A stretch of 64,000 bases of DNA, taken from assembly GCA_051884115.1 (NCBI GenBank), contig JBJEVA010000098.1, forward strand, positions 26,975-90,974, given 5' to 3'. The position numbers and the translations under genes were made by a program. This document shows positions 16,765 through 48,542 of the stretch, piece after piece. A model generated the notes under the pieces. It was not told the DNA's origin. It saw nothing but the letters and a program-made list of their open reading frames with translations, and made no database searches. The DNA comes from Candidatus Coproplasma sp. (GTDB taxonomy: Bacteria; Bacillota; Clostridia; Christensenellales; Borkfalkiaceae). Positions within the stretch are counted from its first letter, which is position 1. Each line of letters begins with the position of its first letter.

Positions 16765-17765
16765 TGGCTACTTTTGAAGGATACGAGAGAAGAGAGGCTA
16801 AAATCCTCGGCGTGCTTAAAGAGTACGGCATTTCTTCCATAGACGAATGTAAAGACATCTGCCTTTCTAAAGGCGTTGACTGCGATAAAATAGTTAGAAG
16901 CACACAGCCTATCTGCTTTGAAAACGCTGTTTGGGCTTACACCGTAGGCGCCGCAATTGCTATCAAGAAGGGTTGCACAAAGGCTTCCGACGCGGCGGCC
17001 GCAATCGGTATCGGCTTACAGAGCTTCTGTATCCCCGGTTCCGTTGCTGAAAACAGAAAGGTTGGTTTAGGTCACGGTAACCTCGGCGCAATGCTCTTAT
17101 CCGACGAAACCGACTGCTTCTGCTTCCTTGCCGGTCACGAAAGCTTTGCCGCCGCAGAAGGCGCAATCAAAATCGCTGAAAACGCTAACAAGGTTAGAGG
17201 CAAGGCGCTTAGGGTTATTTTGAACGGTCTCGGCAAAGACGCCGCTTATATCATTTCGAGAATTAACGGCTTCACATACGTTAAGACGGAGTTCGACCCC
17301 TACACCGAAACGGTAACCGTTACCGACGAAGTTGCTTTCTCCGACGGCCCCAGAGCTAAGGTTAAGTGCTACGGCGCAGATAACGTCCCCGAAGGCGTTG
17401 CCATTATGAAGATGGAAAAGGTTTCCGTTTCCATTACGGGTAACTCCACCAACCCCACCCGTTTCCAGCACCCCGTTGCAGGTACCTACAAAAAATGGTG
17501 CGTAGAAAACGGCGTTAAGTACTTCTCGGTTGCTTCGGGCGGCGGTACAGGCAGAACGCTTCACCCCGACAATATGGCGGCAGGTCCTTCCAGCTACGGT
17601 ATGACCGATACGATGGGCAGAATGCACTCCGATGCACAGTTCGCAGGTTCCTCCTCCGTTCCCGCTCACGTAGAGATGATGGGTCTTATCGGTATGGGAA
17701 ATAACCCCATGGTCGGCGCAACCGTTGCAGTTGCTGTTGCAGTTCAGGAAGGTATGTCCAAGTAA
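16764..17765 (+). CDS. GGGtGRT family protein (function unknown)
   Basis: Contains the eponymous VASGGGTGRTLHPD motif; TAATG start/stop overlap with the upstream gene. Confidence 0.8.
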   Translation: MATFEGYERREAKILGVLKEYGISSIDECKDICLSKGVDCDKIVRSTQPICFENAVWAYTVGAAIAIKKGCTKASDAAAAIGIGLQSFCIPGSVAENRKVGLGHGNLGAMLLSDETDCFCFLAGHESFAAAEGAIKIAENANKVRGKALRVILNGLGKDAAYIISRINGFTYVKTEFDPYTETVTVTDEVAFSDGPRAKVKCYGADNVPEGVAIMKMEKVSVSITGNSTNPTRFQHPVAGTYKKWCVENGVKYFSVASGGGTGRTLHPDNMAAGPSSYGMTDTMGRMHSDAQFAGSSSVPAHVEMMGLIGMGNNPMVGATVAVAVAVQEGMSK

Positions 17766-29067: not shown

Positions 29068-31650
29068 TTAGTAACCTAATACTAACGTTACGTTTCCTGC
29101 AATTTCTTTTGTGTCTGCATTTACTTCAGAGTCACCATGGAATTTTATATCACGTTTATTACTATCCTTACCCAACCAATTTATTTCTTTTACATAAATG
29201 TTATATGTTACTTTATCTGTAGTAATAGTAAGTACTTTGTCAGTTATAGTAAACGTTACATTACCTTCATAAATATCAATTGTTGATACTTTTGTAACAC
29301 CACCGACAACATTTCCGCTTACTTTTTCGCCCAATATTTGGACACTATCTTTTTCAATGAAAACCCTATTCGTATCGGTACCACCTCTATTAAGACTTAC
29401 AGTCATCGTAAACTTTGTTCTCGTATAGACGATTAAGTTGTCGGTGGTAAGTGAAGAAACTTCATTCCAACTGTTGTCGTACCACTTGCCGTCTATACTA
29501 TCGGAAACAGGAGCAGAAGGAGCTGAACCTGAAGTGTTGACGCTTGCGGTAAACGCGGTGCTAACCTTGCTGTGACCCCAGATGACATACAACGTAACAT
29601 TTTTATTTGCGATATCATTGCCATCACCAAATTCAAGTGCTTCACCATTTTTAGAAGCGAAGCCAAGGAATACATAGTTATCAGCTGAAGGTTTCAAAAG
29701 ACCTGCATTGAAGTCATCAAGGTCAACAACAACTGGGGTTATATTTCCTTTCTTAACCGTAGTTCCATAATAGCTAAACGCAACTTCGCTATAGACGTCT
29801 ATAACTTTTGCAACAGAATAGCTTACCGAATATGTCACGTGTGTATAGTTGTTTGCGTCAGTGTCCAATTTTGGTGTAAACACGCACTTATAGTTGATGC
29901 CGTTTTCATTTATGTCATACTTCGCAAAATCTACCGCAAGATTTGCCTCTATTGTTTCATCGATTGCAAACGTTGTCGTAGTTAAAACGGGATAGTACTT
30001 TGCAAGTATTTCATTGGCAACTTCTTCCGTAAGAGTGCTATCCGTTACACCATTTAAGTTAACAACTGCTTTTGCTCTTGCGTAATCCCAACCGCTTGAA
30101 ACGAGAGTGCCATCGCCGTTCTTACCTATTACATATCCTGTTGAACCGTTACGACGAACTTGACCCCAGTTCTCTACGCCAATTATTGTATGGTAGTAAA
30201 CGGTTATTCTGGTTTTATTGTTAGTAGATGATGTTGTACAACCGTAGAAAGGAACTGTCTTAGTGTCACCTGCCTCACCAAGCAATGTTACGCTTTGTGC
30301 AAGGAATACCGTGCTTTTAATATTGAAGTTATCGAGGAACGCCATTTCTCCTATAGTTTCGATATTTTCGGGAACTACTATGTTCTTTATTGAGGTTTCA
30401 GTAGTACCTGTTACAACCTCGCCATTTTCATTAAGTACATAATTCGCCAATGCCTTTTCACCAATTTCGGTTACGGGATAGCCATCTATTTCATTTTCAA
30501 GGACTAAGGTATTTGCTTCGTTGTTATAAGCGTATTTAGTATAGAAATCGTGGGTTAAGTCAACCGTCTTACCGCATACAACGAAGTGATATCCGCTTGC
30601 GTCGCTGTTAGCGGTTAACTGATAATATACGCCGTTTTCATCGGCAACTTTCTCTAAATCACCGCATCTGCTACAAATATGGTTTACATAGTTATGACCG
30701 AGAGCTTCGACCGTTTGTTGCGCAACGAGGATTTCGCCACACTCCGAACAGTGCTTTCCTTCGGTTAAGCCCGTTTTAGTACAGGTGGCTGAAACTGCAT
30801 CGTCAATCACTTCGGTGTGACCGAGAGCATTAACCGTTTGCTGTGCAACGAGAGTTTTACCGCAGACCGAGCAATGCGAACCTTGGGTTAAACCCTCCTC
30901 GGTACAGTTAGGCGCAACCGCTTCGTCCGTAACTACGGTATGAGGCAGAGCTTCGATTTTGCCGTCGCCTAACTTCCAAGCCTCGAGGTCGGAAATTTCG
31001 GTTTCGCCTACGCTATCCGCGAAAAATTTAGTACAACCCTCGTCGGTACATTTATAGTAGCTATTCCAACCGTCTGCCGAACAGGTTGCGCTTTGACCTT
31101 CAACCGCTTCAAGCGTATGCTTTTCGGCAAGTATTACGTTAGCGCTACCGTTAAGTTGGGTTGACGAAGGAAGCTCTACTATTACAAAGTAGGGATTAGA
31201 GAACATATTTTCATCTAAGCCGAGGTCGGTTACGTTTAGGGTGCTATCTCCGCTTGTAAGAGAACTATAGACAACGTTAGAAAGTCCGCTTTGGTTATTA
31301 CCCGTAAAGTACTCGCCCACGCCGAATTTATATCCGATATTGAAATCGGGAATAATTGAATTTTCGGTTGAAATAAGGTCGCCCAAGTCTATTACCGAGA
31401 GATAGAGAGTATAATTGCCATCGTTAGAAGCGATGCTTATCGTGCTTGATACATCGACTTCACGGCCAAACACGTTGATTTTGCTGTACGAAGCTTTTCC
31501 ATCAGCAAACGCGGTAAGACGATACGTACCGTTAAAGTCGCCGTGGTCGTTTGATTTTGTGCTGAACACAACGGCGCAAATGCCGAGGGCAACAGCCATA
31601 AGCGCTGTTACTACCGTTATAATAATTGATTTCTTTGCTTTGAATTTCAT
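29068..31650 (-). CDS. Large N-terminally anchored surface protein: Cys4 modules, BspA-type LRR segment, and a C-terminal module shared with the giant neighbour
   Basis: 860 aa. N-terminus MKFKAKKSIIITVVTALMAVALGICAVV. Contains 2x41-aa HT..D.AV...CT..GLT.G.HCS.CG modules and an LRR_5-like segment (VLENEIDGYPVTEIGEKALAN...VVPENIETIGEMAFLD). The stretch YVFLGFASKNGE..NVTLYVIWG resembles the Listeria-Bacteroides repeat. No LPXTG, SLH or cell-wall-binding repeats were seen. Confidence 0.7.
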   Translation of the reverse strand: MKFKAKKSIIITVVTALMAVALGICAVVFSTKSNDHGDFNGTYRLTAFADGKASYSKINVFGREVDVSSTISIASNDGNYTLYLSVIDLGDLISTENSIIPDFNIGYKFGVGEYFTGNNQSGLSNVVYSSLTSGDSTLNVTDLGLDENMFSNPYFVIVELPSSTQLNGSANVILAEKHTLEAVEGQSATCSADGWNSYYKCTDEGCTKFFADSVGETEISDLEAWKLGDGKIEALPHTVVTDEAVAPNCTEEGLTQGSHCSVCGKTLVAQQTVNALGHTEVIDDAVSATCTKTGLTEGKHCSECGEILVAQQTVEALGHNYVNHICSRCGDLEKVADENGVYYQLTANSDASGYHFVVCGKTVDLTHDFYTKYAYNNEANTLVLENEIDGYPVTEIGEKALANYVLNENGEVVTGTTETSIKNIVVPENIETIGEMAFLDNFNIKSTVFLAQSVTLLGEAGDTKTVPFYGCTTSSTNNKTRITVYYHTIIGVENWGQVRRNGSTGYVIGKNGDGTLVSSGWDYARAKAVVNLNGVTDSTLTEEVANEILAKYYPVLTTTTFAIDETIEANLAVDFAKYDINENGINYKCVFTPKLDTDANNYTHVTYSVSYSVAKVIDVYSEVAFSYYGTTVKKGNITPVVVDLDDFNAGLLKPSADNYVFLGFASKNGEALEFGDGNDIANKNVTLYVIWGHSKVSTAFTASVNTSGSAPSAPVSDSIDGKWYDNSWNEVSSLTTDNLIVYTRTKFTMTVSLNRGGTDTNRVFIEKDSVQILGEKVSGNVVGGVTKVSTIDIYEGNVTFTITDKVLTITTDKVTYNIYVKEINWLGKDSNKRDIKFHGDSEVNADTKEIAGNVTLVLGY
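30694..30939 (-). repeat. Two tandem 123-bp (41-aa) Cys-containing modules inside the 860-aa gene
   Basis: Period markers GTGACCGAGAGC / ATGACCGAGAGC / ATGAGGCAGAGC lie at 30817, 30694 and 30940, exactly 123 nt apart. Confidence 0.75.
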
Positions 31651-31930: not shown

Positions 31931-34900
31931 TTAGTAGCTAAACGTCAAGGTCATATTTCCGCTGACCGTCTGAACTCCTGTTATGCTTGAAGAGATAACG
32001 CGTTGTATTCCCTTATCGCTACCTGTTACTTCTGCATCGTTTACGAATACGGTATAGGTTATATTTCCCGTTACGATTGTAAGCTTATTGTTGTTAAGCG
32101 TAAACGTTGCTTCACCTTCGTATAACAAAATGCTCGTTACGTTAGCCGTTCCGCCGATAACGTTACCGTTAATTCTGTACGTCTTTTCGTTTGCACCGTT
32201 TTCTAAGATGTGAACGATATTAGTGTCGGTACCGCCTCTCTTCAATTTAATTTGAAGCGAATACGTAGCCTTTTCAGCCCAAACAACTTTATAAACTTCT
32301 TCACCGTTTTCTTCTACGATATTCCAACTTGCAAAGTTGTGCGTATATTCGGTAGGGGTATCGAGAACGAGTTCTTCACCCGTTACGGGAATGGTTACCT
32401 TTGTTGCAGTGTTTGCAGGTATCTTAGTGCCGTAGTAGGTAAATTCGTATTCGCTATAAACGTTTATAATCTTTGCCAACGAATAGCTTACCGAATAGGT
32501 TACGTGGGTATAACCGCCTACCGTGCTTAACTCGGGGGTGAACACGCACTTGTAGGTTATGCCGTTTTTGGTCATATCGAACTGTGCAAAATCTACCGAA
32601 AGATTTGCCTCAATCGCTGTGCTGAGAGCAAACGTGCTGTCGCTTACCAAAGGATAATACTTTGAAAGAATTGTATTTACAGCATCTTCGGAAAGAGTGC
32701 TACCCACTACGCCGTTTAATTCGACGGTTGCGCTTGCCGTTACGTAGTCCCAACCGCTTGAATGGGTTGAACCGCCGTTTTCACCGATATAGAAGTTGAA
32801 GTTAATAAACTTGGATACGTACCTGAAATGCCTCCAATCGTCTCCGCTGGTGGTTACGATATTGTGGTAATATACGTTAAGATAGGTTACTTCGTTGCCG
32901 TTTTTACCGTTAACGTCATCCTCGGTACCGAGTACGGAACAGCCGTAGAAGGGCATTGACCTACCGCTCTTAGCTTCGCCGTGGAAGGTTACGGAATCGG
33001 CAAGGAATACAGCAAGTTCCATACCGATATTATCGAGGAACGCCCTTTCGCCTACCGTTACGATATTTTGAGGAACTACTACCCTCTTTATAGCGTGACC
33101 GTCTGTATTTGCCAACGCCTCTTTCGCGATTGCCGTTACGGGATAACCGCCGATTTCATTTTCAAGTACCAAGGTTGCAGGGTTAGAACCGTCGCAATAT
33201 TTTGCGTTAAAGCCTGCCGACCTGCCTACTACGGTATAGCTCATAGTGTCGGAGCTGAACGAATATTTAACGCAATTTATTGTCACTTCGCTGTTAACAA
33301 ACGTTCCGTAAATATCTATTGTTCCTGCCTCTTCGATTATCTCGTTTTCGCCTACCGCAGTACCGTCTGCATAGGTTACGGCGCCAATCGTCTCTAACCC
33401 CTTAACTTCGGTAGGAACCTTATCGCCGACAAACGAAGACAACGTGTATAACTGTTCGCCTGAGTGAACGATTACGCTGACCGCCGTACGCCTTACCGCA
33501 TAAACGGTCATATCGCTATTCATTACAAAACTCGTTTCTCCTACCGTGTCGGCAACCGTTGAATAGAGAAGTCTGAACTCCTTTGTATCGTCGGTATATG
33601 CAGGGGAATTATTGTCGTAGAGATATACCGTCGAGCCGTGACGGACAAGGCGGGTTTGCTTAGTGCCGTCAAGATTTACAATGGTAAGCGTATGCTGATA
33701 GAGCATATTTGAATAGTTGTAGCTTGCATCGTAATTTGAATTATCGCTGTTGTAGTAGAGATTAAAGCAACCGAACTTTTCGTCGTAACCGCTCGCCTCG
33801 TTCTTTACGAAGTGAGAGTAGTCAACTGTTATTCCCTGTGCTGAAATTATCTCGTTTGCCTTGTCGTACATTGAAGGCGCGACAACCCCCGAAGTGAGCG
33901 TATTGCCCATTACGTATTCGGTCGTTGCCCCCTCTTCATAGTTAAGGGTTGCAGAGAATTTTACGTAGGACTGAATGGCACCGCTCGCCTTTACTCCGCT
34001 TATTCCGTTATCGTCTCTAAGCAGTGCGCAATAGAGCTTTGTAAGCACGTCGCCCGTTACTTTGCCTGCGTTGAGCGCAAAGCCGTAGTAATTATCGGAT
34101 ATGCCGAACTCATTTTCAAGGGGTGATATATCGCCGAAAGACGCCGTTTCGGTGCCGTTGATTACTACGCGAAGGGCCTCTACAAAGTCGTACATCGAAA
34201 TTTCCTGTTCCTCTTTATCGGAGGTTACGTTATAGAGATATACGTCCTGAGGAGTAGTAAGTCCCGAGCTTACGTTTAAGTCGCCTGCGGTTGATTTGAT
34301 AATACTCATTACCGTATCCCAACCGCTGATGTTGAGCCACCACTTTAATACGCAGTCGTTGTCTGCCTTTACGAGCATATGGTCCATAAAGTAGTCCATA
34401 GTCATAATTCTGTATTCGGGCGTCGTGGTGTTAAGTCCCTTTGCAAGCGTTAAATATCCGCCGTGGAAGGATATGCCCACCGTGCTTTCGGGTATGGTTA
34501 CTAAGCCAAGCGCACTCATCTTCTTGACGTGTAAAAGTCCTGAGAAGTAGAAGTCGTTATCCGCCATAGAAACCGTAAGCGTCGATACGTCTATGTTGAT
34601 TGTGAACATGCTTACGATATTAGCCGTAATAGAACCGCTTAACGTGAACTTTTCATATACGTTGCCGTTATCGTCGGTTGCAAACTTGACTAAATCGCTG
34701 ATTAAATCGGGGAGGAATTCTATACTTACGTATTCCCCTCTGTCAAACGAAGAGTAATCTCTTCTCGGCGTCTTTGCCGACGAGAGCGAAAGCCAAGTCT
34801 TTAACGACTCTACGCCGTCTTTATCGATAACCTTTGCCTGTGCATTGGTTGTCATCGAGTGGTCGTTATGGTTAATTACCGCTTTAATATTGCCCAAATC

Positions 34901-37900
34901 GCCTGAATAGGTTATGCCGAGCTGACCTAACAAATTGTTAAGGTCGATATCCGTAGTAACTACGCCGTCAACCTCTGTAGAGATAACAGCCTCGCTGAAG
35001 TTGAAGTTTATGAGCTTTTCAAGTAAGGAGGCAAGCGACGTAGTCTGTGCGTCGGTTGTGTTTTCAGCCGTTTCGGGGTTTATTACAACTTCGCCCTCGG
35101 TTGAAGTTTGAGAGTTAGAGCTGTCCGTACCCATAAGTCCGCCCAACATATCCATTACGTTGGTATTGTTTATTGCCGAAACAAGTACCTTAAAGGTATC
35201 GAATAAACTATCCTGTGTTGCATAAACCTTGAAGTCGGGAAGCTTAATATCCGCTACCTGATTTAAGTTTATGAAGAAACGTTGCTGTCCGCTTTGATAT
35301 TCTGTTATAACGTGGAGGTTGATTATTACACCGCCTGCGTTTATGTTCAAAAGACCTTCCGCAAGCTTTCCGTTAAACTCGTCTTTTTCACCCGTTATGT
35401 ATAGTTCTGCGTTGACATAGACGCCTGCAAGCTCTGTAATGTTGCAGTTATCGCCACTCAGCTCGAACACTACCGAATAGGTGTCTGAACCGAGAATGTT
35501 TTCTACAGAAATACAATCTAATGCTTCAAACAGATAATCGTAGGCAAGTTTAATAAATGCAGTGTCGCCGTCCTTTGAAGAGGACATTTTGATATTTTCA
35601 CCGTCGAACTCTGCTTGGAGTGCGGAGATAAGACTTCCGCCTACCGCATAGACTTTAACGTCTCCGCCGAGAGAGAATCTTTCACCGAACGCTCCGTCGT
35701 ATTCGAGCGAGAGATTTCCGTCAGTTCCTATTTTTACGTTTGCGCAATTATCCGAAAGATAGGAGAGTAAGAGCGAAGTTCCGTCGCAGGTTGCGGAGAA
35801 GTTATTTAAGAACTCTACCCAATCGTCCTTGGCAAGTACGCCGAACACGAGCGTTAGCAATTCGTCGGTTGAAATTAAGGTCGTTGAGTTGGCTACGTCG
35901 GTTACCGTTGCGTTATCGGTCGGCGTTGTGCTGTCGGGCTGAGCAGGCTCGGCGGAAATGGGTGCCATTCCGAGTGCGGAAGCCACTTTATTATATATTT
36001 CGATAAAGCCGTTCTTTACGCCGTCTATATCCGACTTATAGATATCTAAACCGATACCGTTGAGCGCAAGTCTTACCATAGGGGTATCGACTGCGTTTTT
36101 GTTGTAATAGAGCTTTAAGGTCGTTACGTCCGTACCCGTTTCGGATATTGACATTCCGAGGTCGAGCGCAACGTATTCTTCACCGCTCTTCCAGCTTATT
36201 TCGCCCTCGCCCCAGACGTAGATTAAAATACCGTCGAGCGAGAGATAGGAGCCGTGGCTACCGCCGTTTTGCGCCTCGTCAATCACAAAGGTTATCTTTT
36301 GACCGTCCTTGATTGCGTTTATCTGCGACATTGCCGAGTTAACCGTATTCAAGAGGTCTGAGAGTTCAAAGCAACCCGTCATTATATCGGCAGGCGTTTG
36401 AGTTGAAATATCCGTGGGATTGAGCGTTAACGCTAAGCCGAGCGAAGGGAGATTTGCCGAAAGAAGGTCGCCCTCTTCGTTTTGCGCAAGATGCTTATAT
36501 GTAAGCGTAAGCTCGCCCAACGCCATACCTGTATTTAAGCCTAATACGTTGAGTAAGTTATCGACGTCAACGCCGAGGTTGAGCGTATTAGAAGTTGTGC
36601 TAAGCTGAGGAATAAGCGCGTTGATATCTGCCGTTAAGAGATTGGAAAGTATGTTGGATACGGCTGAAACGCTTTCATTATTCTGCTCCGCCGAAGCATC
36701 GGACGCAAGAGTTTCAGTCTTGGGCGTTACGTACTCTATTAAAGTTTTAACGCCTGTAACGACCTCGTCTATATTACAGCCAACCTTTACGCAAACTTCC
36801 GTATTATTTATTCTATCGAGGAGCAACACTACCTTACCGCTATCCATCGAACTGCCCTGATAGCGGATAATTATGTGTGCCGAAATCCTTTCACTATTAT
36901 ATATAAACGACAGAGTTGCATCGAGCTGAACTGCCAGAGCCTTGGTACTGTCTGTTATGGAAGCCATTGCGTCGGCAAAGTCGAAGTAAGCGTTTGCCTC
37001 TACCTTTATTCCCTTTAACGCCTCTACGTTGAGCGCGTCGCCGTCGAAGGTTATTCCCAGAACAAGTTTGTTGGCTTCGAGTACTTTGTTGACGTCTGCA
37101 AGTACGTCTGCAAGGTTTAATGCGTTGTCTAAAGTTAACTCTTCGAGTTGTTCGTTGTAGGGGTTAAGCGTTACGCCTATACCGAAAGAAGGTACGGTTG
37201 CAGATAGTAAGTTTTCACCGTTGTGTTCGTATGTAAGCGATACGTTACCGATTGTCATTCCTGCGTTTACATTGAGAAGTTTTAACGCCTCATCGACGTT
37301 TACTTCGAGGTTGAGCAGGTTTTCGCCTGCGCTGATATCGGTTAAAATTGTGTTGATATCTGCGGTTAAGAGGTTTGCAAGAATTGCGTTAAGGTCGATT
37401 GCGTTGCCGTTCGCACTCTCCGTTGCCTCTGTACTTTCCGCCGAGCCGAAATAGCCGAGTAACGTATTTACGCCGTCGATTACTTCGTTTACGTTGCAAT
37501 AGAGCTTAACGTTCCTCTCCGCTCCGCAGAGTGAATCGAGAGAGAGTATTACTCTTCCGTATGTATTTGCATCGTAAACGTAATAAGCGGTAATTGTTGC
37601 CGTTATGTTTTCATAACTTACGGTTGCCGTTACTTGGGCGGTTATACCGCTATTGAGGTCCGCATAGACTGTTGCCGTTGCGCAAAGTCCGTCCATACCG
37701 AGGCTTGCACCGTCGAAGGTTAATGCAACTGCCAATTTCTTAGCTTCAATTATGCTGTTAACGTCTGCAAGTACGTCTGCAAGGTTTAATGCGTTTTCGC
37801 AAGTTAACTCTTCGAGTTGTTCGTTGTAGGGGTTAAGCATTACGCCTACGCCGAAAGAAGGTACGCTTACGGATAGAACGTTCTCGCCGTTGTGGTTGTA

Positions 37901-40798
37901 GCCGAGCGATACGTTACCGATTGTCATTCCTGCATTTACATTGAGAAGATTGAGAACTTCATCGACGTTAACGGTTATATTTGCAGATACGCTGTCCGCG
38001 TTGAGTTCGGGAATAAGCGCATTTAAATCTGCTGATAAAAGGTTTGCGATTATTGTGTTTAAATCTATTGCATTTGCAGTCGCAGTTCCCTCAGACGTCG
38101 CCACAGTCGCACTGTTGCCGAAGTACGTAAGTAACGTGTTTACACCGTCGATTACTTCGTTTACGTTGCAATAGAGCTTAACGTTCCTCTCCACTCCGCA
38201 GAGTGAATCGAGAGAGAGTATTACTGTTCCGTATGTATTCGCATCGTACAAGTAATAAGCGGTAATTGTTGCCGTTATATTTTCGTACTCTACGTTTGCC
38301 GTAACCTGTGCCGTTAAGCCGTTTTTAACGTTGAGGTAGGCGACGGCATTTGCTTTAAGAGAGGCAAGGTAGGGTATGCTTACCGCCGTGAAGTTTGCAC
38401 CGTCAAAGGTTATTCCTACGGCGATATAATTTGCATTTATAAATTTATTTAAATCTTCGAGTATTAAATCGAGGTCGAGGTATTCGTCTTTATCAGGCTC
38501 TGTAAGCTGACCTTCGTCGTCGGCTCCGCTTACGTTTAGCGCAAAGCCGATTGCAGGCAGGGTGACGGAGAGATTACCGCCGTTTGCACCGCCCCTTTTA
38601 TAGCTGAGTGCGCAAGAACCGAATTTTACGCCTGCGTCTATATTGAACATATCCAAAAGCGTATCGATGCTTACGGCAATCTTTATCTCTGCTCCGTCCG
38701 CGTACATTTCGGTCAAAAGCGAAGAGAAGTCGGCAGAGAGAACGCCTGAAATAATATCGGCAAGCCCTGCGGTGTTTAAACCCGTTTTAGCACTGCCCAT
38801 ATTGAGGAGCGACTGCACTCCTTCGGCAAGCTGTGCTATATCGCACTTAACCTTTAAATCTAACGCAGTGCCGTTAAAGCTGTTAAGGCTGAGGTATGCA
38901 TTGCCGTATTTGCCCGACTGAGCGTTAATCTCGTAGAACACGCTTAAAGATGCGGTTAAATCGTTTCCCTTATAGTTATAATAAACGGTGGCGTCTGCTC
39001 CGAGAGATATGCCGTCTAAATTTGCATATGCCGTAACTTCTGCCTTAACGTCTTTTAGCGCAGAAATGCAAACGCCGTCCGCCGTACCGTCTATAACGGC
39101 GCGAACCTTTATGACGTCGGAGGAAAGTAGCGAATGTACGTCTGCAATATAGTCGGCAAGGTTTGCCTCGTTTTGCATAGGCTGACGGGAGATTTCTTCC
39201 GCTGTGGTCGTCTTTAAGGCAAGGCTTAATGCCGAGCCGTTATCCTTCGATGAAAGCCCCTCCACCTTTACACCGCGGATAGCTATGGTATTTCCGCTTA
39301 TGCCGAATATCATATCGACCTTGAAGTCGATACCGAGACCCAATTTATCCTTTCCGCTTGCGTCGAGGGAATTATCTAATGTTATGACCGCCTGTTTCTC
39401 ACCGGAGGTGAGTACCATTGAGTTCATTATGGTTTCGAGCAATCCGTCGAGAGAAGAGTTGCCCTCTGCGGTGTTTTCCGAAGAAGCCCCTCCCTCTTCG
39501 GGGTTATTTGCATTTGCCGAAGAGATTGCGTTATTTATTTTATCAATCAAATCGCCGAACTCACCTACAGCAAGCTTAACCTCTGCCATGTTTGCGCCGA
39601 GAGCAAAGCTTTCTCCGTAATAACAAGAGAGTCCGTTTTGACCGTATTCAACGTAGAAGTCCTGATTTTCGAGGGTCTGCCCTAAGCTTAATTTTAAACG
39701 TATGCTGTTTGCAATATCGGCTAAATCGAGGGAGAGATAGATATAACCTACGTAGGTGTTTTTGCCGAGTTTTGCAGAAATTTCAAACTGCTGTCCGCCG
39801 TCCATTATCTGCGAGAAGCCGTTAGAGAGGATATTGGTTACGTCCATTACGAGTTCTTCGTCGGACGAACCGCCCTGATTGAGATTGTCGTCGCCTATAT
39901 ATTTAGAATAATAATCTTCATAGTAAGCGAAATGCTCTTCGTCAAAATGGTCTTCGCCGTAGTAATATACAACGTTAAATTTGGATACCGATTTTAAAAC
40001 GATACCCTTGTTTATATCCGAAACTTCGTCAACGGAACAGGAATTTATCTGCCAATTTTTATCGAAGTTTACGGTAATTTCTATGTTTTTGAAGTTGGGG
40101 AAGTCCGAAAGTCCGCCCCTCGTCTTCATACCGAACTGATAGTAGAAGGTCGAAGTGTTAGGGTTGAGAACAAAGGACAGAGTATATGTTCCGTCGCTTT
40201 CGCAAACAATCTCTTCGGAAGAAACTATCGTCTCCTCGTTTACAAGGTAATTGAAAAGCTCGGTAGGGAGAAGTCCGTAGGTGTAAAGATAGGAATGTTC
40301 TGTAAAGAGAGTGGGCGCGTCGGTACTCCATTTCGCCGTAGTGGGAACGGTGTCCGCACTCGGCGTCGCACTCGTACGGAAGTAAACAGAACCCTCCTTT
40401 GTTCCGTCCTCCTTTTGGTCAAAAACGGTACAAGTCTGCGTACCGCCCTTTACCATAGACGAGAAGGTTAAGTCGGTTGTGATTAAAACTCCGTCCTTAT
40501 AGTCACGCCAAGTATTCGTACTCTGGTTTGCTATTGCCGCCGACGTTATACCCCTCGATTCCGTATGGTACTGCGTCTGGCTGTCGAATTTAGCTACTAT
40601 ATAAGCGAGGTTTTCCGCACAGGTATAAGCCGTAGGAAGACTGCCGTCCGTGGGAGGAGTCTGCCTTGCGGTGTATGCGTTTTCCGGAGCAGTCATATCG
40701 ACCGATTTGGGCATACAGCCCGCAACGCCCGTTGCCGTGCTTCCGATAAACAATGCGGATATTATCGCTGTTATTGTTTTCTTAAAAACTGATTTCAT
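31931..40798 (-). CDS. Giant (2,955 aa) predicted lipoprotein with ~223-aa tandem modules and an LRR-containing C-terminal module
   Basis: Single uninterrupted ORF. The start was moved to the ATG at 40798 (MKSVFKKTITAIISALFIGSTATGVAGC), which gives a signal peptide with a VAGC lipobox. No catalytic or known anchoring domain was recognised. Confidence 0.75.
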   Translation of the reverse strand: MKSVFKKTITAIISALFIGSTATGVAGCMPKSVDMTAPENAYTARQTPPTDGSLPTAYTCAENLAYIVAKFDSQTQYHTESRGITSAAIANQSTNTWRDYKDGVLITTDLTFSSMVKGGTQTCTVFDQKEDGTKEGSVYFRTSATPSADTVPTTAKWSTDAPTLFTEHSYLYTYGLLPTELFNYLVNEETIVSSEEIVCESDGTYTLSFVLNPNTSTFYYQFGMKTRGGLSDFPNFKNIEITVNFDKNWQINSCSVDEVSDINKGIVLKSVSKFNVVYYYGEDHFDEEHFAYYEDYYSKYIGDDNLNQGGSSDEELVMDVTNILSNGFSQIMDGGQQFEISAKLGKNTYVGYIYLSLDLADIANSIRLKLSLGQTLENQDFYVEYGQNGLSCYYGESFALGANMAEVKLAVGEFGDLIDKINNAISSANANNPEEGGASSENTAEGNSSLDGLLETIMNSMVLTSGEKQAVITLDNSLDASGKDKLGLGIDFKVDMIFGISGNTIAIRGVKVEGLSSKDNGSALSLALKTTTAEEISRQPMQNEANLADYIADVHSLLSSDVIKVRAVIDGTADGVCISALKDVKAEVTAYANLDGISLGADATVYYNYKGNDLTASLSVFYEINAQSGKYGNAYLSLNSFNGTALDLKVKCDIAQLAEGVQSLLNMGSAKTGLNTAGLADIISGVLSADFSSLLTEMYADGAEIKIAVSIDTLLDMFNIDAGVKFGSCALSYKRGGANGGNLSVTLPAIGFALNVSGADDEGQLTEPDKDEYLDLDLILEDLNKFINANYIAVGITFDGANFTAVSIPYLASLKANAVAYLNVKNGLTAQVTANVEYENITATITAYYLYDANTYGTVILSLDSLCGVERNVKLYCNVNEVIDGVNTLLTYFGNSATVATSEGTATANAIDLNTIIANLLSADLNALIPELNADSVSANITVNVDEVLNLLNVNAGMTIGNVSLGYNHNGENVLSVSVPSFGVGVMLNPYNEQLEELTCENALNLADVLADVNSIIEAKKLAVALTFDGASLGMDGLCATATVYADLNSGITAQVTATVSYENITATITAYYVYDANTYGRVILSLDSLCGAERNVKLYCNVNEVIDGVNTLLGYFGSAESTEATESANGNAIDLNAILANLLTADINTILTDISAGENLLNLEVNVDEALKLLNVNAGMTIGNVSLTYEHNGENLLSATVPSFGIGVTLNPYNEQLEELTLDNALNLADVLADVNKVLEANKLVLGITFDGDALNVEALKGIKVEANAYFDFADAMASITDSTKALAVQLDATLSFIYNSERISAHIIIRYQGSSMDSGKVVLLLDRINNTEVCVKVGCNIDEVVTGVKTLIEYVTPKTETLASDASAEQNNESVSAVSNILSNLLTADINALIPQLSTTSNTLNLGVDVDNLLNVLGLNTGMALGELTLTYKHLAQNEEGDLLSANLPSLGLALTLNPTDISTQTPADIMTGCFELSDLLNTVNSAMSQINAIKDGQKITFVIDEAQNGGSHGSYLSLDGILIYVWGEGEISWKSGEEYVALDLGMSISETGTDVTTLKLYYNKNAVDTPMVRLALNGIGLDIYKSDIDGVKNGFIEIYNKVASALGMAPISAEPAQPDSTTPTDNATVTDVANSTTLISTDELLTLVFGVLAKDDWVEFLNNFSATCDGTSLLLSYLSDNCANVKIGTDGNLSLEYDGAFGERFSLGGDVKVYAVGGSLISALQAEFDGENIKMSSSKDGDTAFIKLAYDYLFEALDCISVENILGSDTYSVVFELSGDNCNITELAGVYVNAELYITGEKDEFNGKLAEGLLNINAGGVIINLHVITEYQSGQQRFFINLNQVADIKLPDFKVYATQDSLFDTFKVLVSAINNTNVMDMLGGLMGTDSSNSQTSTEGEVVINPETAENTTDAQTTSLASLLEKLINFNFSEAVISTEVDGVVTTDIDLNNLLGQLGITYSGDLGNIKAVINHNDHSMTTNAQAKVIDKDGVESLKTWLSLSSAKTPRRDYSSFDRGEYVSIEFLPDLISDLVKFATDDNGNVYEKFTLSGSITANIVSMFTINIDVSTLTVSMADNDFYFSGLLHVKKMSALGLVTIPESTVGISFHGGYLTLAKGLNTTTPEYRIMTMDYFMDHMLVKADNDCVLKWWLNISGWDTVMSIIKSTAGDLNVSSGLTTPQDVYLYNVTSDKEEQEISMYDFVEALRVVINGTETASFGDISPLENEFGISDNYYGFALNAGKVTGDVLTKLYCALLRDDNGISGVKASGAIQSYVKFSATLNYEEGATTEYVMGNTLTSGVVAPSMYDKANEIISAQGITVDYSHFVKNEASGYDEKFGCFNLYYNSDNSNYDASYNYSNMLYQHTLTIVNLDGTKQTRLVRHGSTVYLYDNNSPAYTDDTKEFRLLYSTVADTVGETSFVMNSDMTVYAVRRTAVSVIVHSGEQLYTLSSFVGDKVPTEVKGLETIGAVTYADGTAVGENEIIEEAGTIDIYGTFVNSEVTINCVKYSFSSDTMSYTVVGRSAGFNAKYCDGSNPATLVLENEIGGYPVTAIAKEALANTDGHAIKRVVVPQNIVTVGERAFLDNIGMELAVFLADSVTFHGEAKSGRSMPFYGCSVLGTEDDVNGKNGNEVTYLNVYYHNIVTTSGDDWRHFRYVSKFINFNFYIGENGGSTHSSGWDYVTASATVELNGVVGSTLSEDAVNTILSKYYPLVSDSTFALSTAIEANLSVDFAQFDMTKNGITYKCVFTPELSTVGGYTHVTYSVSYSLAKIINVYSEYEFTYYGTKIPANTATKVTIPVTGEELVLDTPTEYTHNFASWNIVEENGEEVYKVVWAEKATYSLQIKLKRGGTDTNIVHILENGANEKTYRINGNVIGGTANVTSILLYEGEATFTLNNNKLTIVTGNITYTVFVNDAEVTGSDKGIQRVISSSITGVQTVSGNMTLTFSY
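35700..39170 (-). repeat. Array of at least 5 tandem ~223-250-aa protein modules inside the giant gene (approximate limits)
   Basis: Module starts recur with the pattern (A)LNLADVLADVN / ANLADYIADVH / LDLILEDLNKF / FELSDLLNTVN near 39165, 38480, 37795, 37125 and 36375. Confidence 0.7.
37092..38432 (-). repeat. Two adjacent, highly similar DNA copies (period 669-672 bp) within the module array
   Basis: ACGTCTGCAAGTACGTCTGCAAGGTTTAATGCGTT occurs at 37092 and 37761. A run of over 100 nt, near-identical, begins TACTTCGTTTACGTTGCAATAGAGCTTAACGTTCCTCTCC at 37481 and 38153. Confidence 0.8.
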
Positions 40799-41144
40799 AT
40801 TTTTTTCTCTTATTTGCTCACTGATAGAAATCCTTAACGCGTCATAGACCACGTTAGAGACATTTTTGACTGTTTAACGCTTAAAACCTACGATTTTAAA
40901 TAATCAGACGGTAAAATAAACTAATTCATACCCCTATTTTAAGCGGTTCAGTAAAAAAGTACAAATTTAACATTATCTATTATAACGCCAAATTTCTAAG
41001 AAGTCAACGAAATTAAAAATATTGTCATAAAATATTATTACTATTTATGTATTTATTTTACAAAAAACGATAGAAAACAACAAAAAAGACTCTTAACTAT
41101 ATTATATAATAAATTCAAAAACAAACGGAGAGTCAATTTGTCAT

Positions 41145-44155: not shown

Positions 44156-46228
44156 ATGATGGAAGAAAATGAAAACGTTTTTCCCGAAGAAGATTTAGCT
44201 CTTTCCGATGGAGAAGACTCTGCTGAAGAACAGCAGGAACAAGAACAGGAAGAACAACCTGTAAAGGCAAAATCCGCCGTAGAGCGTCCTAAAAAGGCGT
44301 TTACGGTTGTAACTTACGTCTTTGCGCTTATCTGTCTTTTGGCAGGTCTCTTTGCCCCCGTATTCAACGTACAAGGTGCGACGAGCGTCCTCGATAAGAT
44401 GCTGTTCAGATATTTGCCTGCAATGGTAAACGGTGTTGTGTATCCTTTTACAAAGACCACCCTTATCACCGATGCCGGTTGGTTCTACACAAAGTTTTAC
44501 TCCGGCGCAGTAGTTTCGGCTTGCGGTTTGGTTTATACCTTAACCTGCGTTCTTGCACTCGTTATGCTTATTCCCGTATGCGCTTGCAAGAGAGAGAACG
44601 GTAAGGATTATATCTGTGCCGTCGTTACGGAAATTATCTCTGTTGTAGTATCTGCAGGATTCGTAACCATTGCTCTCCTCTACTACTGCACTTTAAACAA
44701 CAAGGCTATCCCTTACAATATGTTTATTGCTTGGGTAGGCGTTGCAATCGTTATGGCTATTCAAGCTATTAAGACCAAGGGTTATATGGGCGTATTCAAG
44801 CTCTTCTCTTTCCTTGTTTCCTTAATCATCTTGTTGGCAATGATAGACGTAACGGTATTTATCTCTGCATTAACTTCTCCCTTATCTAAGTTCTCCGAGC
44901 TTATTACTAAGTCCGAAGAAGTTTGCTTTATTGCCGGTGAAAGCTGTGGCTTTACTGCATTATATTATATCGCTCACCTCAAAGCAAACATCTCCGTTTT
45001 ATTCGGAAACGGTGCAATGGAAACGGCTATTAACGTAATTTACATCTGCCTTGGCGCACTTGTGGTTATTAACGTCGTTCTCGAATCGATTGCCCTTGGA
45101 CTTGGTAAGGTCAAGAAAGACGACGGTTCGCCCTGCAAAAATCTCGGCGGTTCTATCGTTAACCTTATAAGATATATACTCGCTATCCTTTTAGCGGTTA
45201 CTCTTATCGTTCTCTGCACTGTATCCGAAAATTCTCACCCCGGCTTATACCTCTACGTATTGCTTTTATTGCTTGTCATTATGCTTGTACTCGTCATTGT
45301 CAAGATGGCAGTTGCAAACTCCAAGGAAAAGAAGTACGAAGCTGAGCAACAAGCTGAGGACGACGAAGACGAAGATAGCGACGAAGACGAAGTTTACCTC
45401 AACGAATCCGATGAAGCTGAAACAGAAAATTACAGCACTGAACAGTCCATCGAAGAACCTGCAGAAGAAGTTGCCGAAGCTCCCGTTGAAGAGGCTACGG
45501 AAGAAGTTGCTGAAACTCCCGTTGCAGGTGTTGCTGAAGAACCTGTAGTTGAAGAACCTGTTGAAGAGGTTGCCGAAGCTCCTGTAGTTGAAGAACCTGT
45601 TGAAGAAGTAGCGGAAGCTCCTGTTGTGGAAGAACCCGTTGAAGAAGTTGTTGAGGCTCCTGTTGTGGAAGAACCCGTTGCAGAAGTTGTTGAAGCTCCT
45701 GTTGTAGAAGAACCCGTTGAAGAGGTTGCCGAAGCTCCTGCCGAAGAACAGTTACAGATTCCTATGGAAGAACAGCCTGAGGAAACGGCTCAACCTGAAG
45801 CACCTGTAAGTTCTTATGCTCAACAGCCCTATGTATATAATCCTTATACAGAGCAACCCACCACAGACTACTCAACGTATAATCCTTTTGTAGCACCTGT
45901 AGAAGAGCCTGCTCCTACCCCCGTGGAAGAGCCTGCTCCCACTCCTGAAGTTTCGGCTTATGCTAATACAGAGGCTGTTGAAGAAGCTCAGCCCGAAACT
46001 GAAGTTTGCGACAAGTTCTTAGCTACCCTTTCTGAGGATGAGAAGAATGAGTTCAACGAAGTATTCGTAGCTAAGTCAAAGGGCAAGATTGGCAATATTC
46101 CCGAATACAAGGTTGGCGAAGACAACTCCGACTTCTTCCCTGCGGTATTCGTATATATCAACAGAATACGTAACATCTGTTCGGACGAATTGCTCGCAAA
46201 GATTTACAACCAGCTTTACAAAAACTAA
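44156..46228 (+). CDS. Polytopic membrane protein with an acidic N-terminus and a long Glu/Pro/Val tandem-repeat cytoplasmic or extracellular region
   Basis: 690 aa with ~8-9 hydrophobic spans, then (VVEEPVEEVAEAP)n, a Pro-rich stretch and a ~90-aa C-terminal domain. No family was recognised. Confidence 0.6.
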   Translation: MMEENENVFPEEDLALSDGEDSAEEQQEQEQEEQPVKAKSAVERPKKAFTVVTYVFALICLLAGLFAPVFNVQGATSVLDKMLFRYLPAMVNGVVYPFTKTTLITDAGWFYTKFYSGAVVSACGLVYTLTCVLALVMLIPVCACKRENGKDYICAVVTEIISVVVSAGFVTIALLYYCTLNNKAIPYNMFIAWVGVAIVMAIQAIKTKGYMGVFKLFSFLVSLIILLAMIDVTVFISALTSPLSKFSELITKSEEVCFIAGESCGFTALYYIAHLKANISVLFGNGAMETAINVIYICLGALVVINVVLESIALGLGKVKKDDGSPCKNLGGSIVNLIRYILAILLAVTLIVLCTVSENSHPGLYLYVLLLLLVIMLVLVIVKMAVANSKEKKYEAEQQAEDDEDEDSDEDEVYLNESDEAETENYSTEQSIEEPAEEVAEAPVEEATEEVAETPVAGVAEEPVVEEPVEEVAEAPVVEEPVEEVAEAPVVEEPVEEVVEAPVVEEPVAEVVEAPVVEEPVEEVAEAPAEEQLQIPMEEQPEETAQPEAPVSSYAQQPYVYNPYTEQPTTDYSTYNPFVAPVEEPAPTPVEEPAPTPEVSAYANTEAVEEAQPETEVCDKFLATLSEDEKNEFNEVFVAKSKGKIGNIPEYKVGEDNSDFFPAVFVYINRIRNICSDELLAKIYNQLYKN
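45449..45750 (+). repeat. In-frame 39-bp tandem repeat (5 regular units at 45542-45736 plus degenerate flanking copies)
   Basis: Units CCTGTAGTTGAAGAACCTGTTGAAGAGGTTGCCGAAGCT and variants begin at 45542, 45581, 45620, 45659 and 45698. Confidence 0.85.
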
Positions 46229-46410: not shown

Positions 46411-46441
46411 AAAAAAAGCAAGCTCTTTTGCTTGCTTTTTT
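46411..46441. terminator. Bidirectional-looking hairpin terminator downstream of the sigma operon
   Basis: AAAAAAAGCAAGC-TCTT-TTGCTTGCTTTTTT. Confidence 0.6.
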
Positions 46442-46487: not shown

Positions 46488-46850
46488 TTAGTTACGTTTG
46501 ATTACTACCGTAACGTTACCGCCGTTTATTGTTACCCTTCCTTCCGAAACAGAGTTTACAATATAAAGCCCTCTACCGCTTTCCGCTAAGACGTCCGGAA
46601 GTGCCGTAACTTTTATTACTCCGTTCGGTGCAGACGCACATACGGTAATCGTTACTCCGTCTTCATCTATCTCTCCGCTAAATATTGCAGTCCCTGAACA
46701 GTGGCGCAACACGTTTGTAATTAACTCGCAAGATACAAGACGGGAATAGAAAACGGCGTCTTCATCGACGTTTCTGTCAATCATATAATTGACAAAGCGG
46801 TGGAGTTCTGTATTCATTTCATCGATAGCGCTGACTTCAAATTTAATCAT
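46488..46850 (-). CDS. Small GHKL (HATPase_c_2) anti-sigma-factor-like kinase, 120 aa
   Basis: N-box CELITNVLRH retained; ESGRGLYIVNSV G-box-like; 8-nt overlap with the sigma gene stop. Confidence 0.65.
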   Translation of the reverse strand: MIKFEVSAIDEMNTELHRFVNYMIDRNVDEDAVFYSRLVSCELITNVLRHCSGTAIFSGEIDEDGVTITVCASAPNGVIKVTALPDVLAESGRGLYIVNSVSEGRVTINGGNVTVVIKRN

Positions 46851-47571
46851 CTTGCAACGCTTCCCTCAATTTTTTTGTTATCCTGCGTTCCATTCTTGAA
46901 ATGAACATCTGGCTGACGCCCATCTCCTTGCCCGTTTCTGCCTGCGATTTATTTTCAAGGTATCTAAGCTTAACAAGCAACTTCTCTTCCGGGGTGAGTT
47001 TTTCCACCTCCGCCTTGACTGATTCGTTACTTATAAACCTTTCAAAAGTACTGTCGTCGTCCGCAATGACGTCGTATAGGGGCATATCGTTATCTTCCCC
47101 CCTTACCGTCGTATCGAGGCTGACGGGAGTTTTATATTCCATAGCCTCCAAAATATCCTCTTCGCTTTCGTGTAAAATCGCAGAGAGTTGCTTTACCGTA
47201 GGTTTTACGCCGTTTTCTCTATAATAGTCGTTTACTGCCGATTTAACGCTTACTCTAAGCGTATTCAGCTTTCTCGGCACGCGCACCGAACGGGAATAGT
47301 CACGAAAATAATTACATATAAAACCCGTTATGGTAGGGGTTACGTACGTAGTAAACATATTCCCCTTATCGGGGTCGAATTTGTCAACGCCCTTAATCAA
47401 CGCTTCGGAGGCAATCTGTAAAAGGTCGTCGTATTCGACGCCCCTACCCGTAAACTTTTTTGCCAGAATTTCGGCAACGTACATATAGTTTTCAATAAGC
47501 TTATTCCTCAACTTTATATCGCCCGTTTTGCGATATTCGCGGAACAGCTCCATTGCTTCCTCGTTGGTCAT
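46843..47571 (-). CDS. Group-3 sigma-70 family factor (SigB/F/G-like)
   Basis: Region 2 (YDDLLQIASEALIKGVDKFDPDKGNMFTTYVTPTITG), RVPRKL, region 4 HTH (SQAETGKEMGVSQMFISRMERR). Confidence 0.85.
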   Translation of the reverse strand: MTNEEAMELFREYRKTGDIKLRNKLIENYMYVAEILAKKFTGRGVEYDDLLQIASEALIKGVDKFDPDKGNMFTTYVTPTITGFICNYFRDYSRSVRVPRKLNTLRVSVKSAVNDYYRENGVKPTVKQLSAILHESEEDILEAMEYKTPVSLDTTVRGEDNDMPLYDVIADDDSTFERFISNESVKAEVEKLTPEEKLLVKLRYLENKSQAETGKEMGVSQMFISRMERRITKKLREALQDD

Positions 47572-47915
47572 AATTTTAACTTAAATCCGCTTATTTTTCC
47601 TTCGTTCTTTATGATATCGCAAGTTGCCACAAGTGCCGAAATGAGCGACAGTGAAAAGCCGTTGTCGCAGTCTGCGGGCATACCGCCGAAGCCTTCAATC
47701 AATGCGGTAACACCGCCGTCGCACCCGAGCGCAACCTTAACGCTCTCGTAACCGCAATCCTTTAAGACAAGACAGCTTTCCGTTACGCATACCTTCATAT
47801 CCTCTAAGCAATCAATATCGACGTCTGCCGTAGAGCATACGGCGCCCACCACAAGGCGGAGAGCCGTCATATATTCACTGTCTGAAAGATTAAATTCAAC
47901 CGTAAAAGTTTTCAT
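47568..47915 (-). CDS. Degenerate SpoIIAB/RsbW-like protein (115 aa) lacking the N-box Asn/His
   Basis: ALRLVVGAVCSTADVDIDCLEDMKVCVTESCLVLKDCGY aligns with SpoIIAB [38 protein letters not shown], but Asn becomes Val and His becomes Asp. ATGA overlap with the sigma gene. Confidence 0.5.
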   Translation of the reverse strand: MKTFTVEFNLSDSEYMTALRLVVGAVCSTADVDIDCLEDMKVCVTESCLVLKDCGYESVKVALGCDGGVTALIEGFGGMPADCDNGFSLSLISALVATCDIIKNEGKISGFKLKL

Positions 47916-48220
47916 TATTCAATCTCCATCAACTTATCCAACGCACAGATTTCAAAGAGTTTTCTTATGCGGGGGCGGACGTTAATAAGCTTCAAATTAT
48001 TGCCTTCTGCCTTTAAATTTTTAAAGAGTTTTACAAAGGTTCCGAGCGTAGTGCTGTCTATAAATTCCAATGCGCTACAATCGAAAACCACGTCCTTTTT
48101 ATCGTTATGATACATTGCGCTAACCTCGGCATAGAAGTCGTCGCTCGTTGCGCTGTCTATTTCGCCCGTTAAGGCAATAGTTAGTTTTTCGTCTGCGGAA
48201 AGCAAATTGACTTGTTGCAT
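47915..48220 (-). CDS. STAS-domain anti-sigma-factor antagonist (RsbV/SpoIIAA-like)
   Basis: FIDSTTLGTFV with the conserved phosphorylatable Ser. The start was moved to the ATG at 48220 behind AGGAGA. Confidence 0.8.
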   Translation of the reverse strand: MQQVNLLSADEKLTIALTGEIDSATSDDFYAEVSAMYHNDKKDVVFDCSALEFIDSTTLGTFVKLFKNLKAEGNNLKLINVRPRIRKLFEICALDKLMEIE

Positions 48221-48542
48221 TATCTTTCTCCTGAATAATCTTTCAATAATATTTATAAACACGTACGGGGCTGTTAAAACTTAAATTTTAACGCATACCT
48301 ACATTTTAGTTTAAACCTTAGCTTTTGTCAATACCGTTAAAATAATCTTATACGATTAAATATTTACAGCCGATGATATTGCGTTTTACATACTTATTTT
48401 TTTAACACACAAATTATTTAAAAACACGTTTAAGTTATAGACGAATTATGTTAAGACGGTTAGCAATTTTTGTTATTATATGTATATTTATTAAATAATA
48501 TATGAATATTTATGCAGAATGAGCATTGCCATTTTAAATTTA

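Follow-up and report, generated by a model that had tools for sequence, protein, structure and literature searches.

A conserved four-gene operon pairing a sigmaB-like sigma factor with two short proteins of predicted GHKL fold in uncultured gut Clostridia

In the textbook view of partner switching, taken from Bacillus, one GHKL protein both sequesters the sigma factor and phosphorylates its antagonist. How these two jobs are shared when a sigma operon encodes two such proteins, both of them shortened, is the question raised by a locus in a 64,000-nucleotide stretch of a Candidatus Coproplasma sp. genome (contig JBJEVA010000098.1 of assembly GCA_051884115.1, positions 26,975 to 90,974; hereafter the window). 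The locus encodes a STAS anti-sigma-factor antagonist, a protein of 115 amino acids (aa), a group-3 sigma factor and a 120-aa protein (Table 1). We favour, at a probability of roughly 45%, a sigmaB-like switch in which the 115-aa protein would serve as a kinase-dead anti-sigma factor and the 120-aa protein would supply the activity that its partner has lost.

The open reading frame (ORF) calls bear out the minus-strand gene order of a first-pass annotation of this DNA, together with its junction overlaps of 1, 4 and 8 nucleotides (nt), and every motif that it had named could be located (FIDSTTLG, VTESCLVLKDCGY, CELITNVLRH, AESGRGLYIV and SVRVPRKL). The longest ORF for the STAS gene (47915-48262) begins with GTG; we took the internal ATG at 48220, which gives a 101-aa protein, as the true start because AGGAG lies 8 nt 5' of it and the orthologues begin with MQQV in 82/83 loci. 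To see how widely the arrangement occurs, relatives of the 115-aa protein were sought in one genome per GTDB species, and a subset of the loci (about 80) was fetched; gene order was read in 82 loci, promoters in 79 and alignment columns in 75-83 species. Such a relative turned up in the genomes of 214 species. The 80 fetched loci all belong to uncultured Clostridia metagenome-assembled genomes (MAGs) labelled Candidatus Coproplasma, Christensenellaceae or 'Christensenella sp.'. The order STAS-115-sigma-120 was found in 77/82 of the fetched loci, with the remaining five interrupted by contig ends, and equally in 15/15 intact loci of a sister clade, which comprises Ca. Scatosoma together with MAGs from ruminant and rabbit guts. 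Nearly all junctions of the related loci show overlaps of 1, 4 or 8 nt. Protein searches returned 228 homologues for the 115-aa family, nearly all of 114-117 aa, and 168 for the 120-aa family.

Purifying selection acts on all four genes, with median ratios of non-synonymous to synonymous substitution rates (dN/dS) of 0.15 for both STAS and sigma, 0.26 for the 115-aa gene and 0.36 for the 120-aa gene, and the four-gene arrangement is far beyond chance. The identical order in related loci and these ratios therefore make the downstream 120-aa ORF a real, conserved gene, and the first-pass annotation's reservation that it might be absent or unconserved in relatives can be laid aside. No further sigma, STAS or GHKL genes were found in the window or within 10 kb on either side in the 80 loci. 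On one metagenome contig (L207, 1845-2936) gene calling runs the sigma and 120-aa genes together into one product of 363 aa (Sigma70_r2/r3 plus HATPase_c_2), which is probably a frameshift or an assembly error, though it may be a natural fusion. In a locus of Nocardioides sp. Root1257 (L107, 2989-4794), a gene distantly related to the 120-aa family comes after a sigma gene, together with a divergent STAS gene, from which the order of sigma and then GHKL may also occur in Actinobacteria.

What, then, does the protein in the canonical position before sigma do? The 115-aa protein has a weak HATPase_c_2 match below the cutoff (PF13581, 19.7 bits against 27.4) and fails the equivalog cutoffs for RsbW (NF003144, 22.8 against 145) and SpoIIAB (TIGR01925, 15.9 against 135). 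Its AlphaFold2 model (predicted local distance difference test score, pLDDT, of 94) has the Bergerat (GHKL) fold of the RsbW/SpoIIAB type, and the top Foldseek matches of this model are UsfX, RsbW and SpoIIAB (8IH8, 6M36/7, 1TID and 1L0O; template modelling (TM) scores of 0.72-0.83). The family profile, compared with PDB sequences, matches the N-terminal regions of UsfX and RsbW, with UsfX 8JZT and 8IH8 the best. Motif states in both small proteins were read from hhalign alignments to RsbW/SpoIIAB sequences from PDB alignments and to the canonical 145-aa RsbW of an Alkalithermobacter rsbV-rsbW-sigma locus (L003). By these alignments and the column counts, the 115-aa protein retains Glu46 and an invariant equivalent of Arg20, a residue that SpoIIAB genetics has shown to be required for binding of both sigma and antagonist. 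The N-box Asn position is I, V or F in 79/83 species and N in none, an invariant Gly75 takes the place of the G1 Asp, the ATP lid is shorter by about 19 residues, and G2 is lost and reads (N/E)FS.

Because the N-box Asn, G1, the lid and G2 have gone, the 115-aa protein would hold sigma but have no capacity to phosphorylate anything. Its gene lies directly upstream of the sigma gene with a 4-nt overlap, and the protein looks like a kinase-dead anti-sigma factor of the UsfX/RsbW1 type that would bind this sigma. The first-pass annotation had already judged that the protein in this position had lost its kinase motifs, and proper profile alignment agrees, revealing losses where retained motifs might have been found, although the Arg20 equivalent is kept. 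Division of the two functions has an experimental precedent in M. smegmatis, where RsbW1 (UsfX-like) binds SigF and has no kinase activity, RsbW2 has its N, G1 and G2 boxes intact and phosphorylates the antagonist RsfB without binding SigF, and RsbW3 binds RsbW1, has no kinase activity and is a member of the SigF regulon (PMC7693655).

The candidate for the missing kinase is the 120-aa protein. It too has a weak, sub-cutoff HATPase_c_2 match (21.7 bits against 27.4), and its AlphaFold2 model (pLDDT 86) finds RsbW, SpoIIAB and UsfX as top Foldseek matches at TM scores of ~0.7-0.76. The top structures shared by the two small proteins are 6M36/6M37 (B. subtilis RsbW), 8IH8/8JZT (M. tuberculosis UsfX) and 1TID/1TH8/1L0O (SpoIIAB). 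The family aligns with RsbW/SpoIIAB at an hhalign probability of 96%, and its profile matched nothing meaningful among PDB sequences. The 120-aa protein is, then, a downstream, conserved protein that is GHKL-folded in its model. A recent duplication as the origin of the 115-aa and 120-aa families was considered and discarded, the two being too diverged, with a direct profile-profile comparison giving just 2.4% probability; it is for this reason that their kinship is drawn from the shared fold and the alignment of each to RsbW/SpoIIAB.

The case for a kinase lies in its motifs. Across 75 orthologues the N-box residues E42, N46 and H50 and the G2 residues G92, R93 and G94 are invariant, as is the G2 loop E-x-G-R-G-L, and the 120-aa protein is the sole component of the operon with invariant Mg/phosphate-binding motifs (N-box E42/N46/H50 and G2 ExGRGL). 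Kinase activity is therefore plausible from the sequence, and we would give a kinase role close to an even chance. Several observations weigh against it. The G1 box DxGxG is lost in both its adenine-binding Asp and its glycines: position 72 is A in 51, S in 20 and T in 2 of the 75 orthologues and D in none (0/75), and the neighbouring residue is E/D in just 44/75. A profile search of 1.84 billion representative proteins places the 120-aa protein within a wider set of proteins of ~117-125 aa, which form roughly 80 clusters (50% identity) at E <= 1e-10, and in this wider ~120-aa subfamily the G1 Asp position is occupied by S, G, N, A, T or Y. The 120-aa family has no conserved equivalent of Arg20, so that the canonical STAS docking site may be absent. 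We know of no active GHKL enzyme that lacks the G1 Asp. The proven kinase RsbW2, unlike the 120-aa protein, has all of N, G1 and G2 (PMC7693655).

Since G1 is absent in 75/75 orthologues and across the ~120-aa subfamily, a separate kinase is the leading hypothesis here and not a reading of the motifs. The first-pass annotation had noted the N-box and the GRGL G2, both of which turn out to be invariant, but it overlooked the loss of the G1 box. Its proposed division of labour holds up as far as the RsbW1/RsbW2 precedent and the lost kinase motifs of the 115-aa protein go; the 120-aa protein is not the intact kinase that it had supposed. More distant relatives retain DxGxG(F/I), followed by the same short lid and ESGRGL, and the 120-aa family therefore appears to have lost G1 from a short-lid kinase-type ancestor while N and G2 were held. 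That the ~120-aa G1-less proteins are active Ser kinases, perhaps using another nucleotide or needing to be docked on their 115-aa partner, strikes us as rather unlikely.

The missing G1 box and the lack of any active GHKL enzyme known to us without that Asp make a non-catalytic role a serious rival, albeit one that we consider somewhat unlikely. The 120-aa protein would then be a second pseudokinase acting on the 115-aa anti-sigma factor, and the STAS kinase, if there is one, would be encoded elsewhere. It might be an obligate heterodimer partner, as in a subfunctionalised RsbW/SpoIIAB homodimer, or an RsbW3-like antagonist or booster co-induced with sigma; the kinase-less RsbW3, which binds RsbW1 and belongs to the SigF regulon, offers a model (PMC7693655). 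The absence of G1 throughout the ~120-aa subfamily is as expected for such a protein, and the dN/dS of its gene, at 0.36, exceeds those of the other three. Pairwise-distance correlations mildly favour it as well: the highest, r 0.75 (partial 0.45), links the 115-aa protein to the 120-aa protein, compared with 0.48 for 120-STAS and 0.63 for 120-sigma, so that they would suit a kinase-substrate pair no better than a 115/120 complex, a weak pointer away from a kinase. This mirror-tree signal is, however, confounded, because the two proteins are the fastest-evolving of the operon, and it cannot separate a kinase from a complex. Against a non-catalytic role, E42, N46, H50 and ExGRGL stay invariant down to ~33% identity, which would be difficult to account for if the protein had no role in binding phosphate/Mg, and the operon would be left unable to switch off its STAS protein, although Ser56 is invariant.

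Alternatively, the 120-aa protein could be a second anti-sigma factor, either on the same sigma as one of two layers or on another sigma, which we regard as improbable. It has the fold of the anti-sigma factors RsbW, SpoIIAB and UsfX, its gene stands immediately after the sigma gene and is translationally coupled to it, and the 120-sigma correlation of 0.63 fits. Yet the Arg20 equivalent, invariant in the 115-aa protein and in RsbW/SpoIIAB/UsfX, is not conserved in the 120-aa protein, whose profile has no N-terminal similarity to known anti-sigma factors in the PDB, and only one of the three M. smegmatis RsbW paralogues binds SigF (PMC7693655).

The putative target of such a kinase is the STAS protein. 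It exceeds the cutoffs of PF01740 (66.8 bits against 22.6) and TIGR00377 (69.6 against 53.45) and stays below that of the SpoIIAA equivalog (TIGR02886, 61.1 against 114.75). It carries the D-S-(S/T)-x-L-G motif with its Ser (FIDSTTLG); all 83 orthologues share D55, S56, T57, C48 and C92, and in the sister clade, too, D55, S56 and T57 do not vary. Cys48 and Cys92 are likewise invariant in the sister clade, and in the 115-aa protein Cys43 is present in 83/83 species and Cys27 and Cys99 in 76/83. The mycobacterial STAS antagonists are RsfA and RsfB, of which M. tuberculosis RsfA is under disulfide control (PMC7693655). By analogy with RsfA, the invariant cysteines make a thiol or redox input to the switch conceivable in these anaerobes.

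Which sigma factor does the switch control, and could it be the forespore SigF? The sigma protein is above the cutoffs for all three of PF04542, PF04539 and PF04545 (Sigma70 r2/r3/r4). Its top NCBIfam model is TIGR02980 (SigB/F/G subfamily) at 199.9 bits, under the cutoff of 234.35, and it is flat on the equivalogs, with 144.2 on SigF (TIGR02885, cutoff 321.45), 137 on SigG and 131.9 on SigB (TIGR02941, cutoff 315). The hidden Markov model (HMM) classification that the first-pass annotation had recommended thus puts the TIGR02980 family best and shows no clear preference between SigF and SigB (144/137/132). Comparison with individual sigma factors is more telling. The rsbVW-linked sigma of L003, which itself scores SigB above SigF, shares 38% identity (160 bits) with the window's sigma, against 30% (110 bits) for the SigF of a related gut MAG (L136). 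TPTI.G, VR(V/I)PR(K/R) and SQMxISRME, which read TPTITG, VRVPRK and SQMFISRME in the window's sigma, are common to it and to that of L003, where SigF instead carries VPMIAGEI, IKVSRA and SQVQVSR; RVPRKL had been called unlike SigF from the start, and this comparison supports that call.

The promoter region points the same way. Two promoter-like sites precede the STAS gene (Table 1). The sigmaA-type site agrees with 11/12 consensus positions, and TTGACA-N16-18-TAnAAT lies at about the same distance in 45/79 related loci. The sigmaB-type site is more conserved: GTTT(t/c)(a/g)-N14-G(T/G)TTATA was found in 73/79 loci (L006-L085), with a 14-nt spacer in 68/73, and the last 80 nt hold 65 such sites compared with 0.4 in shuffles. 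This GTTT-type motif matches only once in the 64-kb window, and 62/75 of its matches in 1.14 Mb of related loci are this operon site; as a guide to regulon candidates it gave mere background elsewhere in the 1.14 Mb. We had also considered the conserved GTTTATAAAT...TATAC as an operator palindrome or a sigmaA -10 element, and dropped this on account of its fixed 14-nt spacing to the upstream GTTT. With its 14-nt spacer the motif falls within the sigmaB-type pattern (GTTT at -35, a GGGTAT-like -10, spacer 12-17); it matches the C. difficile sigmaB consensus WGWTT-N13-17-(G/T)GGTWA (PMC7494833) and resembles the mycobacterial SigF consensus GGWWT-N16-17-GGGTAY, which goes with an autoregulated usfX-sigF operon (PMC7693655). 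Judged by its sequence and position, it is probably the operon's autoregulatory promoter, read by its own sigma.

The organism does carry sporulation genes, as the first-pass annotation had said: SpoVAD (above its cutoff), SpoVAC/EB, YqfD and a YlbJ-like protein were found in the window. The module could accordingly be this lineage's diverged spoIIA operon, with the sigma as forespore SigF and SpoIIAB split into two genes. The presence of SpoVAD, SpoVAC/EB and YqfD fits this, as does the best PDB sequence match of the sigma, which is G. stearothermophilus sigmaF (118.5 bits, with 8x6g_H next at 109), and the spore_sigF model is marginally over the SigB model (144 against 132). A canonical spoIIA operon and the module were not found together in one genome, the SpoIIAB-bearing MAGs looked up being absent from an incomplete list of module-bearing MAGs, from which the nearest SpoVAD neighbours of L136 are absent as well; this gap speaks for a diverged spoIIA and against a separate sigmaB-type module.

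Other evidence makes a diverged spoIIA very improbable. The operon promoter is of sigmaB type and looks autoregulatory, and the sigma is closer to the rsbVW-linked sigma (38%) than to the L136 SigF (30%). L136, a related rabbit-gut MAG (CANQWX01), was located through a SpoVAD 72% identical to that of the window, and it has a canonical spoIIAA-spoIIAB-sigF operon (8887-10354; 102, 147 and 243 aa) about 2 kb from spoVAD-spoVAC. Its 147-aa SpoIIAB scores 187.7 bits on TIGR01925 against the cutoff of 135, and its sigma scores 260 on SigF and 127 on SigB, where the module sigma is flat. Some 8000 canonical SpoIIAB sequences are present in public data (E <= 1e-20); the top 120 are 72-100% identical to that of L136 and come mostly from metagenome contigs, with mouse and rabbit gut samples among those looked up. 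The canonical spoIIA operon adjoins comEC in those inspected contigs, from mouse gut and related metagenomes, whose flanks were long enough. The window's spoVAD is preceded by a possible promoter of what we take to be the forespore-type consensus (GCATA-N18-AAAACTA), unlike the GTTT-type motif of the operon. A literature search on Coproplasma together with sporulation gave nothing useful. The organism of the window probably has a separate spoIIA operon, and a sigmaB-type partner switch distinct from the sporulation operon is, from these sequence comparisons, the best explanation of the module. The original advice not to equate it with spoIIA thus gains from the sigmaB-type promoter, the 38% against 30% sigma identity and the canonical operon in L136.

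Taken together, the favoured sigmaB-like switch would work as follows. Transcription would probably start from the sigmaA-type promoter and the adjacent sigmaB-type promoter, at the second of which the operon's own sigma would exert positive autoregulation. The 115-aa anti-sigma factor would hold sigma and could not phosphorylate. With Ser56 unphosphorylated, the STAS protein would, as in its family, bind the 115-aa protein and release sigma. The 120-aa protein, translationally coupled after sigma, would phosphorylate Ser56 and reset the switch in the manner of RsbW2; to be active it would have to recognise its nucleotide unconventionally, given the absent G1 Asp. The activating input would come from a PP2C-type phosphatase encoded elsewhere. 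As a point on the debit side of this scheme, a scan of the larger window ORFs turned up no PP2C phosphatase.

The last gene of the operon is followed by a terminator-like hairpin (RNA fold -14.5 kcal/mol, z = -4.2 against shuffles), which a consensus terminator scan missed because its A and U tracts pair. Convergent to the operon is a gene for a 690-aa multi-pass membrane protein that carries an extended acidic region of PVVEEPVEEVAEA-type repeats. L001 and L002 have a similar large membrane protein at the same position, and other relatives a large gene of ~700 aa without a family match. Further genes of the window are listed in Table 1.

Table 1 Features of the window discussed in the text (coordinates are those of the 64-kb stretch).
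Feature	Coordinates	Strand	Remarks
STAS anti-sigma-factor antagonist gene, RsbV/SpoIIAA-like, 101 aa	47915..48220	minus	Ser56 in DSTTLG; PF01740, TIGR00377
115-aa lid-less GHKL-fold protein gene	47568..47915	minus	predicted kinase-dead anti-sigma factor (UsfX/RsbW1-like)
Group-3 sigma factor gene, SigB/SigF/SigG family, 242 aa	46843..47571	minus	sigmaB-like
120-aa short-lid GHKL-fold protein gene	46488..46850	minus	N-box and G2, no G1; candidate STAS kinase or non-catalytic modulator
SigmaA-type promoter-like site, TTGACA-17-TAAAAT	48303..48331	minus	~98 nt upstream of STAS start
SigmaB-type promoter-like motif, GTTTTA-N14-GTTTATA	48254..48280	minus	directly upstream of STAS gene
Terminator-like hairpin and U tract	46412..46441	minus	47 nt past the 120-aa gene stop codon
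spoVAD, then spoVAC/EB-family gene, with a possible forespore-type promoter 5' of spoVAD	10135-11552 and 11559-11588	minus	directly downstream of mcsA-mcsB-clpC
GGGtGRT-family protein	16764-17765		PF14057, 640 bits
860-aa ORF	29068-31650	minus	adjacent to the 2973-aa ORF; no Pfam/NCBIfam match
2973-aa ORF	31931-40852	minus	no Pfam match
690-aa multi-pass membrane protein	44156-46228	plus	no family match

If the favoured reading is right, the operon would be a compact, self-contained Firmicute case of separated jobs, present in more than 200 species of gut Clostridia that are abundant yet uncultured. It would offer a system for asking which GHKL motifs serve sigma binding and which serve catalysis, and a test case for the use of ATP by a GHKL protein without the G1 Asp. 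Its interest rises should the G1-less protein turn out to be active as a kinase: the functions of RsbW would then be cleanly separated into two miniaturised proteins of one operon. A likely sigmaB-like stress regulon and its promoter motif have been identified in a lineage without genetics.

The operon can be set beside four known systems. The B. subtilis sigB operon encodes two intact GHKL Ser kinases, RsbT and RsbW, with RsbS/RsbR and RsbV as their respective substrates. It resembles the present operon in having two small GHKL paralogues with different partners in one sigma operon, but here there is a single STAS protein and neither GHKL protein has the full motif set. The rsbV-rsbW-sigB operons of Bacillus, Clostridioides difficile and Alkalithermobacter (L003) share the order STAS-GHKL-sigma, a sigmaB-type promoter directly upstream and a DST-type Ser motif in the antagonist, and in L003 the 38% sigma identity and the signature residues. 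They have one RsbW of ~145-160 aa with N, G1 and G2 intact (L003 RsbW, 6M36), which binds sigma and phosphorylates RsbV, and no GHKL gene 3' of sigB; the module, moreover, scores far under the NCBIfam RsbW and SigB equivalog thresholds. With spoIIAA-spoIIAB-sigF it has in common the same families, the same first three gene positions and an organism with sporulation genes. It differs in its fourth gene, its sigmaB-type promoter and its scores on the SpoIIAB (15.9/135 bits) and SigF (144/321 bits) models.

The parallel in logic is the mycobacterial SigF system. There, too, the sigma gene is directly preceded by that of a kinase-dead, degenerate anti-sigma factor, and the 115-aa protein has UsfX as its top match in both sequence and fold. 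Extra GHKL paralogues with other functions, a STAS antagonist with a regulatory Ser and an autoregulated promoter of GTTT/GGGTAT type (here predicted) complete the likeness. In mycobacteria, however, the kinase and antagonist genes lie at separate loci and the GHKL proteins are of 138-148 aa, whereas here a single STAS protein and GHKL proteins of 115-120 aa are encoded in one coupled Firmicute operon; and RsbW2 has a G1 box, which the candidate kinase here does not. Both GHKL domains of the operon are in fact shorter than any RsbW, SpoIIAB or UsfX protein in the comparison, which have 136-160 aa. The separation of anti-sigma and kinase functions is already known from mycobacterial experiments. 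What is new is its apparent packing into a compact, translationally coupled four-gene operon in Firmicutes, with a GHKL gene placed after the sigma gene, with both GHKL proteins miniaturised, and with complementary motif losses that include a conserved G1-less family.

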